Origin: a plasmid
Reading direction: 5' to 3' (one strand)
Length of the DNA: 3,731 nucleotides
Assembly (NCBI RefSeq): GCF_988243305.1
Contig: NZ_OZ547141.1
A program made the position numbers and the translations under genes. The notes under the pieces were generated by a model. The model did no database searches. It saw nothing but the letters and a program-made list of their open reading frames with translations, and had not been told where the DNA came from. Shown here piece by piece: positions 628 to 3,731 of this stretch; within the stretch, counting starts at the first letter, position 1, and each line of letters starts with the position of its first letter.

Positions 628-1304
<677 letters not shown>

Positions 1305-1332
1305 TGTCAGCTTGTTTTTATGATATGAGAAC

Positions 1333-1361
1333 TTGAGATCCTTTCTATCTCGTCGTAATCT
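1333..1361 (+). promoter_or_regulatory. RNAII (replication primer) promoter: -35 TTGAGA 1333-1338, -10 TAATCT 1356-1361
   Basis: Same hexamers and 17-bp spacing as the pMB1/ColE1 RNAII promoter as I recall it (TTGAGATCC...CGTAATCT); sits immediately upstream of the RNAI-complementary region. Confidence 0.75.
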
Positions 1362-1371
1362 CTTGCTGTGT

Positions 1372-1479
1372 AAACGAAAAAACCGCCTTGCAGGGCGGTT
1401 TTTCGAAGGTTCTCAGAGCTACCAACTCTTTGAGCCGAGGTAACTGGCTTGGAGGAGCGCAGTCACCAAAACTTGTTCT
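1372..1479 (-). ncRNA. RNAI antisense copy-number control RNA (about 105-108 nt)
   Basis: Minus-strand sequence acaagttttggtgactgcgctcctccaagccagttacctcggctcaaagagttggtagctctgagaaccttcgaaaaaccgccctgcaaggcggttttttcgttt closely resembles p15A/ColE1 RNAI and ends in the G/C hairpin plus U-tract terminator. Confidence 0.8.
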
Positions 1480-1482
1480 TTC

Positions 1483-1512
1483 AGTTTAGCCTTAACAGGC
1501 GCATGACTTCAA
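1483..1512 (-). promoter_or_regulatory. RNAI promoter (-10 TAAACT, -35 TTGAAG on the minus strand)
   Basis: Hexamers read directly upstream of the RNAI 5' end; 18-bp spacer; position analogous to the ColE1 RNAI promoter. Confidence 0.55.
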
Positions 1513-1971
1513 GGCTAACTCCTCTAATTCGGTTACCAGTGGCTGCTGCCAGTGGCGATAAGTCGTGTCTTCTCGGTTTGGATTCAAGTCGATAGTTACC
1601 GGATAAGGCGCAGCGGTCGGACTGAACGGGGGGTTCGTGCATACAGTCCAGCTTGGAGCGAACGACCTACACCGGGCCGAGATACCAACAGCGTGAGCTA
1701 TGAGAAAGCGCCACGTTTCCCGAAGGGAGAAAGGCGGACAGGTATCCGGTAAGCGGCAGGGTCGGAACAGGAGAGCGCACGAGGGAGCTTCCAGGGGGAA
1801 ACGCCTGGTATCTTTATAGTCCTGTCGGGTTTCGCCACCTCTGACTTGAGCGTCGGTTTTTGTGATGCTCGTCAGGGGGGCGGAGCCTATGGAAAAACGC
1901 CATCGGCGCGGCCTTTGTCCCTGGCTTCGGCTTTTTGCTCACATGTTCTTTCCGGCGTTATCCCCTGATTC

Positions 1972-1980
1972 TGTGGATAA
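1972..1980 (-). promoter_or_regulatory. DnaA box (TTATCCACA)
   Basis: Exact consensus 9-mer on the minus strand within cggttatccacagaatcag, the same context as the DnaA box downstream of the pMB1 origin as I recall it. Confidence 0.5.
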
Positions 1981-2112
1981 CCGTATTACCGCCTTTGAGT
2001 GAGCTGACACCGCTCGCCGCAGTCGAACGACCGAGCGTAGCGAGTCAGTGAGCGAGGAAGCGGAAGAGCGCCTTATGTGACATTTTCTCCTTACGCTCCT
2101 CTATGCCGTTCT

Positions 2113-2129
2113 GCATCCTGTCCGGATGC
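2113..2129 (-). terminator. Short hairpin (6-bp stem GCATCC/GGATGC, 5-nt loop) directly after the rom stop codon; possible weak terminator
   Basis: Inverted repeat read directly from the sequence; no U-tract follows on the rom strand, so intrinsic-terminator function is doubtful. Confidence 0.3.
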
Positions 2130-2130
2130 G

Positions 2131-2325
2131 TTATATCCCGGTAAGATTTTCCGCTTCAAAGCGTGTCTGTATGCTGTTCTGAAGTTCTTCCGCGAGTTCG
2201 TGCAGCTTCTCACACATGGCGGCCTGTTCGTCAGCATCAAGTGCGTCCAGTTTTTCGAGCAGCGTCAGGCTCTGGCTTTTTATGAATCCTGCCATGTTGA
2301 GTACGGTTTGCTGCTGCTTGTTCAT
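2131..2325 (-). CDS. rom: Rom/Rop RNA one modulator protein (64 aa)
   Basis: ORF-track protein MNKQQQTVLNMAGFIKSQSLTLLEKLDALDADEQAAMCEKLHELAEELQNSIQTRFEAENLTGI aligns closely with ColE1 Rop (MTKQEKTALNMARFIRSQTLTLLEKLNELDADEQADICESLHDHADELYRS...); it is oriented toward the origin as in ColE1. Confidence 0.9.
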   Translation of the reverse strand: MNKQQQTVLNMAGFIKSQSLTLLEKLDALDADEQAAMCEKLHELAEELQNSIQTRFEAENLTGI

Positions 2326-2413
2326 CTTTCTGTTTTCTCCGTTCTTTCTGTCATCTGCGTTGTGTGATTATATCGCGTACCACTTTTCGACTGTTTTACC
2401 GTCGGTATTCTGC

Positions 2414-2447
2414 TGTCTGACTCTTTGACGGGCATTTCTGTCAGACA
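2414..2447. repeat. Inverted repeat, 8-bp arms TGTCTGAC / GTCAGACA with 18-bp spacer, in the rom-mobC intergenic region (function unassigned)
   Basis: Read directly from the sequence (arms 2414-2421 and 2440-2447). Confidence 0.8.
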
Positions 2448-2515
2448 ACACTGTCACTGCCAAAAAACTGCCGTGCCTTTGTCGGTAATTCGAGCTTGCT
2501 GACAGGACAGGATGT

Positions 2516-2557
2516 GCAATTGTTATACCGCGCATACATGCACGCTATTACAATTGC
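2516..2557. repeat. Inverted repeat, 12-bp arms GCAATTGTTATA / TATTACAATTGC (11/12 complementary) with 18-bp spacer, about 50 bp upstream of the mobC-like start; candidate operator or promoter element
   Basis: Read directly from the sequence; an adjacent short palindrome GCCCTG-gt-CAGGGC lies at 2556-2569. Confidence 0.75.
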
Positions 2558-2608
2558 CCTGGTCAGGGCTTTGCCCCGACACCCATGTCAGATACGGAGC
2601 CATGTTTT

Positions 2609-2932
2609 ATGACAAAACGAAGTGGAAGTAATACGCGCAGGCGGGCTATCAGTCGCCCTGTTCGTCTGACGGCAGAAGAAGACCAGGAAATCAGAAAAAG
2701 GGCTGCTGAATGCGGCAAGACCGTTTCCGGTTTTTTACGGGCGGCAGCTCTCGGTAAGAAAGTTAACTCACTGACTGATGATCGGGTACTGAAAGAAGTT
2801 ATGAGACTGGGGGCGTTACAGAAAAAACTCTTTATCGACGGCAAGCGTGTCGGGGACAGGGAGTATGCGGAGGTGCTGATCGCTATTACGGAGTATCACC
2901 GTGCCCTGTTATCCAGGCTTATGGCAGATTAG
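2609..2932 (+). CDS. mobC: MobC/MbeC-like relaxosome accessory protein with N-terminal ribbon-helix-helix DNA-binding fold (107 aa); family assignment is from recollection, not a search
   Basis: ORF-track protein 2585..2932; preferred start is the second ATG at 2609, which has a GGAG 9 nt upstream (2596-2599). After a basic N-terminal tail (TKRSGSNTRRRAISRP), the segment VRLTAEEDQEIRKRAAECGKTVSGFLRAAAL has the strand-helix-helix pattern of RHH proteins. Context is a ColE1-family replicon next to rom. Confidence 0.6.
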   Translation: MTKRSGSNTRRRAISRPVRLTAEEDQEIRKRAAECGKTVSGFLRAAALGKKVNSLTDDRVLKEVMRLGALQKKLFIDGKRVGDREYAEVLIAITEYHRALLSRLMAD

Positions 2933-3008
2933 CTTCCAGGGGAGAAAACTGTCGAAAACAGACGGTATGAACACTGTAAGCTCCCAAAGTGATCACCACT
3001 CGCTTTCA

Positions 3009-3022
3009 TGCATAGCTATGCA
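3009..3022. promoter_or_regulatory. Perfect 14-bp palindrome TGCATAGCTATGCA; ArgR-box-like element of the cer accessory region
   Basis: Palindrome read directly; resembles the ArgR box half-sites TGAAT/ATTCA with one mismatch each; centred about 108 bp upstream of the XerC arm. Confidence 0.45.
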
Positions 3023-3096
3023 GCGAGCTGAAAACGATCCTGACGCATTTCCCCGGTTTTCTTAGGGTAAAACATCTCTTTTTGCAGTGTCTGTGT

Positions 3097-3121
3097 CAGA
3101 ATCGCGCTCAGCGCGATTCTG
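3097..3121. repeat. Perfect hairpin: 11-bp arms CAGAATCGCGC / GCGCGATTCTG with 3-nt loop, abutting the XerC arm
   Basis: Read directly from the sequence; no flanking T-tract on either strand, so not a canonical intrinsic terminator. Confidence 0.85.
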
Positions 3122-3122
3122 T

Positions 3123-3152
3123 GGTGCGTACAATTAAGGGATTATGGTAAAT
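3123..3152. other. XerC/XerD core recombination site: XerC arm GGTGCGTACAA 3123-3133, central region TTAAGGGA 3134-3141, XerD arm TTATGGTAAAT 3142-3152
   Basis: Matches the ColE1 cer core GGTGCGTACAA-TTAAGGGA-TTATGGTAAAT from memory, with the 8-bp central region typical of cer-type rather than dif-type sites. Confidence 0.8.
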
Positions 3153-3168
3153 ACAATTGGTTAAATTA

Positions 3169-3206
3169 GGGGTCTGACGCTCAGTGGAACGAAAACTCAC
3201 GTTAAG
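3169..3206. repeat. Tn3 38-bp terminal inverted repeat (bla-proximal end, IR-R)
   Basis: GGGGTCTGACGCTCAGTGGAACGAAAACTCACGTTAAG matches the Tn3 terminal repeat as recalled; followed by the standard Tn3 sequence leading into the bla stop codon. The flanking 5 bp outside the repeat is AATTA (3164-3168), an AT-rich target. Confidence 0.9.
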
Positions 3207-3315
3207 GGATTTTGGTCATGAGATTATCAAAAAGGATCTTCACCTAGATCCTTTTAAATTAAAAATGAAGTTTTAAATCAATCTAAAGTATATATGAGTA
3301 AACTTGGTCTGACAG

Positions 3316-3731
<416 letters not shown>

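Follow-up and report, generated by a model that had tools for sequence, protein, structure and literature searches.

The DNA analyzed here, referred to as the window, is a stretch of 3731 bp that represents a complete circular ColE1-type plasmid, and over the queried region it was matched at 100% by NZ_CP138772.1 (Klebsiella oxytoca strain 45 plasmid unnamed5, 3731 bp). The annotation of this plasmid consists of rom, nikA (given as 'mobA'), blaTEM-1, and a recombinase and nothing else, and no open reading frame capable of encoding a relaxase was found anywhere in the 3731-bp plasmid. The backbone and cargo features are as follows.

3316-3731 plus 1-445 (spanning the ends), minus strand: blaTEM-1
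628-1185, minus strand: Tn3-family resolvase gene (tnpR), with the res sequence next to it
1374-1474, minus strand: RNAI of the ColE1-type replicon
2131-2325, minus strand: rom (Rop domain, E = 1.5e-32)
2326-2608: rom/nikA intergenic region, 283 bp
2609-2932, plus strand: nikA, encoding a 107-amino-acid ribbon-helix-helix (RHH) relaxosome accessory protein (WP_000166966.1)
3123-3152: XerC/XerD core of a cer-type multimer resolution site, with accessory sequences at about 2941-3122
3169-3206: Tn3 38-bp terminal repeat

The replicon was 84% identical to ColE1 across window positions 1332-2096. This homology runs to within 34 nt of the rom stop (2131), which bears out the earlier statement that a pBR322-style bom site would not fit between rom and the origin. 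Downstream of nikA, the cer site and the Tn3 end follow, and no cognate nikB adjoins it. The 30-bp XerCD core GGTGCGTACAATTAAGGGATTATGGTAAAT (3123-3152) is the same as the ColE1 core, letter for letter, and homology with pU302S, NTP16, pYU39_2.7, pZ1323-6, and pFRIK804-03 stops exactly at 3152, indicating that the variable cargo starts directly after the cer core. The cargo (3169-3731 plus 1-1293) is a Tn3-family remnant comprising the terminal repeat, blaTEM-1, tnpR, and res without tnpA. Its inner end joins the backbone at TTATAA (1288-1293), which we take to be the res site I crossover point, and a junction at this position would suggest a resolvase-mediated deletion or recombination.

Other cargo histories were seen among relatives. 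At the site of the Tn3 remnant, the sibling plasmid NZ_CP066843.1 (positions 442-1789 aligned with window 1289-3168; backbone 99.8% identical) instead has a retron, with a reverse transcriptase and a 'retron Se72 family effector'. In NTP16, a Tn3-family element is inserted inside rom, and the backbone alignments overlap by 5 bp (window 2185-2189), as a target duplication of this length would produce; since this site differs from the one occupied here, the bla transposon has entered the family at least two times.

The rom-nikA intergenic region and its oriT core

The region between the divergent rom and nikA genes contains the following elements.

2502-2584, minus strand: oriT core, 83 bp, with homology to the oriTs of R64 and further plasmids of the IncI complex
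2514-2507, minus strand: nick motif CATCCTG|T (CATCCTGT), a pattern match, with cleavage (vertical bar) predicted between the complements of 2508 and 2507
2516-2535: nick-proximal arm of repeat A (GCAATTGTTATACCGCGCAT on the plus strand), the putative NikA-binding site, ending 8 nt from the nick
2538-2557: nick-distal arm of repeat A (ATGCACGCTATTACAATTGC on the plus strand), pairing with the proximal arm as a hairpin when the nicked strand is folded as single-stranded DNA
2562-2580: repeat B (GTCAGGGC-TTT-GCCCCGAC), an 8-bp imperfect inverted repeat with 7/8 Watson-Crick pairs and a 3-nt loop
2596-2599, plus strand: GGAG ribosome-binding site, spaced 9 nt from the nikA ATG and invariant in 6 family members

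When the 283-bp region was used as the query in a sensitive homology search of 72,556 plasmids, the whole of it was present in 376 small plasmids, while ∼2,700 further plasmids matched only query positions 177-259 (window 2502-2584), at 79-87% identity. Of these block-only plasmids, 1,575 were typed as conjugative, and those sampled belonged to the IncI complex. Judged by sequence, the 83-bp block is the functional unit of the intergenic region. The region was aligned with the nikA upstream sequences of R64, IncB/O, and IncI-gamma/K plasmids, and the identity of the block to the R64 oriT was 83.5-87% (83.5% by global alignment). The first-pass annotation had placed the oriT, if the plasmid has one, between rom and the RHH gene and had proposed alignment to MOBP/MOBQ oriTs; the location proved right, as 2502-2584 is homologous to the experimentally defined R64 oriT and lies directly upstream of a nikA homologue, and the alignment partner was a MOBP-type oriT, that of R64 (IncI1), rather than one of the MOBQ type.

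The likeness to R64 extends to the arrangement of the elements. On the minus strand the oriT reads 5'-GGGTGTCGGGGCAAAGCCCTGACCAGGGCAATTGTAATAGCGTGCATGTATGCGCGGTATAACAATTGCACATCCTG|TCCTGT-3', and the order along the nicked strand is repeat B (2580-2562, here reading GTCGGGGC-AAA-GCCCTGAC), repeat A (2557-2538 and 2535-2516), 8 nt (2515-2508), and the nick. The stretch ACAATTGCACATCCTGTCC is the same in the window and R64, and GGGTGTCGGGGC-AAGCCCTGACCAG matches R64 except for one loop base. Folding of the nicked strand as single-stranded DNA yielded two hairpins (z = -5.68). The distance from the end of repeat B to the nikA ATG is 28 nt, and in R64 the repeat-B arm and the GTG annotated as the start of nikA are 19 nt apart.

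Three inverted repeats had initially been put forward together as a candidate oriT or operator, and only the one at 2516-2557 turned out to belong to the oriT. This repeat, repeat A, is larger than the 12 bp originally described, with 20-nt arms that are complementary at 17/20 positions, and an inverted repeat as good was obtained in 1/1000 dinucleotide-preserving shuffles of the 283-bp region. Its 8-nt spacing to the nick equals that of R64. The G at window 2556 makes the outermost repeat A pair perfect, whereas pU302S has an A. Conservation was assessed among 11 R64-type oriTs (3 from Col-nikA plasmids, 4 from I-complex conjugative plasmids, and 4 from nikA-less plasmids of 1.5-5 kb). Across this set, repeat A varied but stayed paired in 91% of cells, and sliding the partner columns lowered the pairing from 93% to 31-48%; moreover, four pairs showed compensatory changes on both sides, and the covariation score was reached by 0/500 shuffles. 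Members of the Col-nikA family hardly differ in the oriT core, while their flanks have diverged to 89-96%. Such conservation and covariation are evidence for selection on the putative oriT site. Given that the 17-bp repeat of R64 is part of the NikA-binding site (PMC3817090; PMC4743918), the nick-proximal part of repeat A is predicted to bind NikA here as well.

The R64 oriT carries a set of 17-bp and 8-bp repeats (PMC3817090), and we assign repeat B to the published 8-bp repeat. Its arms are the same as in R64, it was unchanged in 9-11 of the 11 R64-type oriTs, and it is common even to the ColE1 bom. The other two repeats fared less well. The one at 2414-2447 is indeed a perfect 8-bp repeat where it had been reported, and its core (2414-2421/2440-2447) extends to 10/11 positions at 2411-2421 and 2440-2450, but its statistical standing is marginal, with 8.9% of shuffles equalling it, and it is not conserved; it falls in the most variable stretch of the Col-nikA family region, and among pYU39_2.7, pZ1323-6, NTP16, and pFRIK804-03 it shows one-sided breaks in three and is half deleted in the fourth. 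On these grounds, the 2411-2450 repeat was rejected as an operator or terminator. The palindrome GCCCTG-gt-CAGGGC (2556-2569) likewise exists but is at chance level, a 6-bp palindrome like it occurring in 78% of shuffles, and most relatives have an imperfect version (ACCCTG...) and R64 an interrupted one; it was thus rejected as a functional element. The conserved pairing near this position is repeat B (2562-2580), which is another pairing.

A nic consensus, which had gone unrecognized, is found at 2514-2507 on the minus strand, where CATCCTGT fits the MOBP nick consensus (C/T)ATCCTG(C/T) (PMC3772185); the IncI-type nic has been given as ACATC(C/T)TG|T (PMC8125031). The nick region ACATCCTG|T that an R64-type oriT requires on the transferred strand is present, and CACATCCTGTCC (2516-2505, minus strand) was invariant among the 11 R64-type oriTs, R64 included, across differing backbones. 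The exact cleavage position, CATCCTG|T, is predicted by homology. The window contains three exact matches to YATCCTGY, compared with 0.47 expected. One further copy, at 852-859 (minus strand), is within tnpR. The other, a second CATCCTGT at 2114-2121 (plus strand), was rejected as a second nick site, being without a neighboring repeat A and confined to the three closest relatives. It is part of a short stem-loop, GCATCC-TGTCC-GGATGC, immediately 3' of the rom stop codon, and the sequence on either side of it is also like the oriT nick region; this copy is probably due to chance or is a rom terminator stem.

The RHH protein, at first described as mobC-like, is NikA-like and does not resemble MobC/MbeC of ColE1 to the same degree. 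It matched Pfam NikA-like (PF21983) with an E value of 2.8e-18 (66 bits versus a cutoff of 27) and NCBIfam NF041264 with 113 bits versus a cutoff of 80, and its sole significant PDB match was 2BA3, the RHH domain of R64 NikA, to which its residues 4-48 aligned (E = 2.4e-5). It is 51% identical to R64 NikA versus 20% to ColE1 MbeC, and 54% and 48% identical to the NikA proteins of two other I-complex plasmids. As a protein, NikA is classed as a DNA-binding accessory factor of the RHH type (PMC6514445). The PGAP name for this homologue is 'plasmid mobilization protein MobA'. On the rom side of the region, a perfect TATAAT at 2372-2367 (minus strand) precedes the rom ATG by 42 nt. It does not vary among six family members, is without a recognizable -35 element, and is a candidate -10 of the rom promoter.

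Taken together, these results indicate that 2502-2584 is very probably a functional R64 (IncI1)-type oriT, a familiar kind of transfer origin taken over from IncI1 (R64-like) conjugative plasmids, with 2609-2932 encoding the plasmid's own NikA and the relaxase being absent.

Predicted transfer in trans and competing readings

In the proposed mechanism, NikA would bind through its RHH fold to the nick-proximal arm of repeat A (2516-2535) and, once bound, would recruit a NikB relaxase provided in trans by a co-resident IncI-complex conjugative plasmid; as the relaxase is not encoded by the plasmid itself, nicking would have to come from the NikB of a helper. NikB would cleave the minus strand at CATCCTG|T, between 2508 and 2507, remain on the 5' end, and pilot the cut strand through the helper's type IV secretion system. 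The leading region of R64, with ssb, psiB, psiA, and ardA, is found across oriT from nikAB, and by this polarity the 5' end would lead here with rom and the replication origin entering first and nikA last. After a full round, repeats A and B at the 3' end would form hairpins for recognition and rejoining, and Furuya and Komano reportedly described a role of the two R64 oriT hairpins in termination. For the present plasmid, both the reliance on NikB and a termination function of the hairpins are inferred.

Published mobilization data are available for close relatives. IncI1 helpers mobilized pU302S, while IncX helpers did not (PMC8623487), and IncP tra functions failed to mobilize it, with F doing so at only about 1e-6 (PMC9282650). 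In addition, NTP16 was mobilized by R64, as cited in PMC9282650. Plasmid pEC156, which has an R64-type oriT and no mob genes, was mobilized by R64drd11, and its derivative lacking both oriT loci (F type and R64 type) was not (PMC4743918). Since R64-type-oriT plasmids without nikA are still mobilized (PMC4743918), the plasmid's own NikA is not necessarily required. The module, its anatomy, and its IncI1 mobilization are already known from near-identical plasmids, and the contribution of this analysis is one correctly annotated instance rather than new biology.

In K. oxytoca strain 45, the co-resident plasmids (NZ_CP138768-CP138771) are an IncFIA/FIB/R plasmid of 248 kb, a conjugative IncHI2A plasmid of 228 kb (MOBH/MPF_F), a plasmid of 113 kb typed as non-mobilizable, and a MOBP plasmid of 4.9 kb. 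An IncI or MPF_I type was assigned to none of these four other plasmids, so that a cognate helper is not evident in the present host and the oriT may be idle there.

As for the choice of helper, the Col-nikA module might be tuned to a relaxase other than R64 NikB, or it might act as an adaptor that widens the range of relaxases that can be recruited. The diverged NikA (51% to R64) and the lengthened 20-nt repeat A prompt both ideas, and the low-level mobilization of pU302S by F prompts the adaptor version; we consider these proposals unlikely. The authors of PMC9282650 suggest that a better-matched helper for the family may exist, so the question of helper matching was raised earlier and is not new. 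Were either idea true, this family, which is very abundant with about 380 plasmids in PLSDB, would have a cognate helper that is yet to be found.

Operators of the RHH protein, repressing its own promoter and/or that of rom with no role in transfer, could also account for inverted repeats at this position. RHH proteins are classically transcriptional repressors (PMC6514445), the related accessory protein MobC of RA3 autoregulates its operon (PMC4175270), and repeat A is located 52-93 nt ahead of the nikA start codon. A purely regulatory function is nevertheless very improbable, considering that the whole block is homologous to a defined oriT, including an invariant nick motif that would be needless for an operator, and that the same block is found in tiny plasmids without any nikA and an oriT of this type is reported to support mobilization (PMC4743918). 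Moreover, a scan of 2280-2660 for sigma-70 consensus promoters and terminators found none. The operator and oriT roles of the repeats are not in competition, and NikA autoregulation is a possible second function of the region.

The absence of a relaxase in cis and of any typed IncI helper in K. oxytoca strain 45 would fit a decayed oriT-nikAB relic that lost nikB and is no longer functional. Decay is, however, difficult to reconcile with an oriT core that stayed almost invariant while the family flanks diverged, with a NikA that is at least 99% identical in 329 plasmid records, and with the experimental mobilization of near-identical plasmids (PMC9282650; PMC8623487), and we regard it as highly unlikely.

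More remote still is a ColE1-type bom relocated across rom and nicked by an MbeA-type (MOB-HEN) relaxase, to which we attach almost no probability. The replicon, rom, and cer are all ColE1-like, and the ColE1 bom and the window have GGGTGTCGGGGC..AGCCCTGACC in common. Alignment of ColE1 (L009) positions 1495-1521 with window 2559-2584 showed that this shared part is the repeat-B end, without the nick region; the candidate ColE1/pBR322 bom prompted by GGGTGTCGGGGC..AGCC.TGACC was rejected for this reason, the nick region being of the R64 type. The ColE1 likeness thus ends at repeat B, and the ColE1 nick region GTATACTGGCTTAAC, presumably cut at …TATACTGG|CTTAAC…, is unrelated to CACATCCTGTCC. 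The local alignment score was 55 for ColE1 versus 122 for R64, and the accessory protein, as described above, is far closer to R64 NikA than to MbeC. In addition, IncP and IncX helpers mobilize mobC-mobA ColE-type plasmids but not pU302S (PMC9282650; PMC8623487). The ColE1-bom reading is already refuted at the sequence level. The shared repeat-B end would explain why two papers name the pSe-Kan locus differently, as 'R64-type' and as 'ColE-type'.

An F-type oriT, prompted by 'MOBF' typing, was dismissed, as the sequence GGGGTGTGGTGCTTT, which we take to be the F nic, was unmatched at up to 3 mismatches. Such plasmids are frequently mis-typed: MOB-suite labels NZ_CP138772.1, NC_006815.1, NC_002090.1, and others 'relaxase MOBF' despite their MOBP-type oriT and the lack of a relaxase gene. 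Labels such as 'MOBF' and 'MobA' can mislead automated mobility prediction. With the R64-type reading, the route of spread for this relaxase-less 3.7-kb blaTEM-1 plasmid, which confers ampicillin resistance, would be dependence on IncI-complex conjugative plasmids, and a correct reading of oriT and nikA is useful for both annotation and the assessment of resistance-spread risk.

Comparison with known systems

The closest counterparts are the plasmids of the pCERC7/pU302S/NTP16 family, which have the same rom / oriT / nikA / cer backbone as the window. This family of NikA-encoding small Col plasmids was described by Moran and Hall (Plasmid 2017;89:42). The window shows all traits of this Col-nikA family, namely a ColE1 replicon with rom, an R64-like oriT, the 20-nt repeat, NikA, a cer-like site followed by cargo, and no relaxase; the oriT of Col-nikA plasmids is entered in oriTDB as pEC34A-type. 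Plasmid pU302S encodes the same NikA (WP_000166966.1), and its intergenic region is identical at 279/283 positions, with 1 of the 4 differences inside the oriT core. Relatives differ in cargo, carrying aph(3')-Ia, sul2/strAB, a retron, and others, whereas the window carries the Tn3 remnant with blaTEM-1.

The same oriT core with the invariant nick motif occurs in pEC156, pKPN2, pSe-Kan, and Col plasmids of 1-5 kb that, unlike the window, have no nikA or other mob gene; these nikA-less plasmids depend wholly on the helper, and their oriT is often in the pBR322 bom position. The R64-type core without any mob gene was seen in plasmids of 1.0-5 kb, including L011 (1551 bp), L012 (2495 bp), L013, L017, and H113 (1029 bp). 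In L012 the oriT is found where pBR322 has its bom, between rom and the origin, and in L013 it is directly upstream of rom.

More distant systems share single elements. The RP4/IncP oriT has the core nick hexamer ATCCTG and an inverted repeat just 5' of it (PMC3772185), but it showed no similarity to the window beyond the nick motif, and the RP4 TraJ model scored 34 bits against the window NikA, far under its cutoff of 134. With ColE1 (MbeC-MbeA, MOB-HEN, MOBP5), the window shares the repeat-B end, an RHH-type accessory protein belonging to the extended MbeC/NikA family, and the divergent arrangement of rom and the accessory gene, while ColE1 differs in its nick sequence, in having the oriT across rom and the relaxase in cis, and in an MbeC only 20% identical to the window NikA.

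R64 itself is organized alike, its nicked strand running from repeat B through repeat A and 8 nt to the nick, with nikA immediately beyond repeat B; the nick region is identical. The two NikA proteins, 51% identical, belong to the RHH fold family of PDB 2BA3. Repeat A has 17-nt arms and a 6-nt spacer in R64 versus 20-nt arms and a 2-nt spacer in the window, and R64 carries nikB in cis (MOBP relaxase, MPF_I), whereas the window has no nikB and places the module in a ColE1 replicon beside rom. The oriT is of the R64 type, with the relaxase used in trans.
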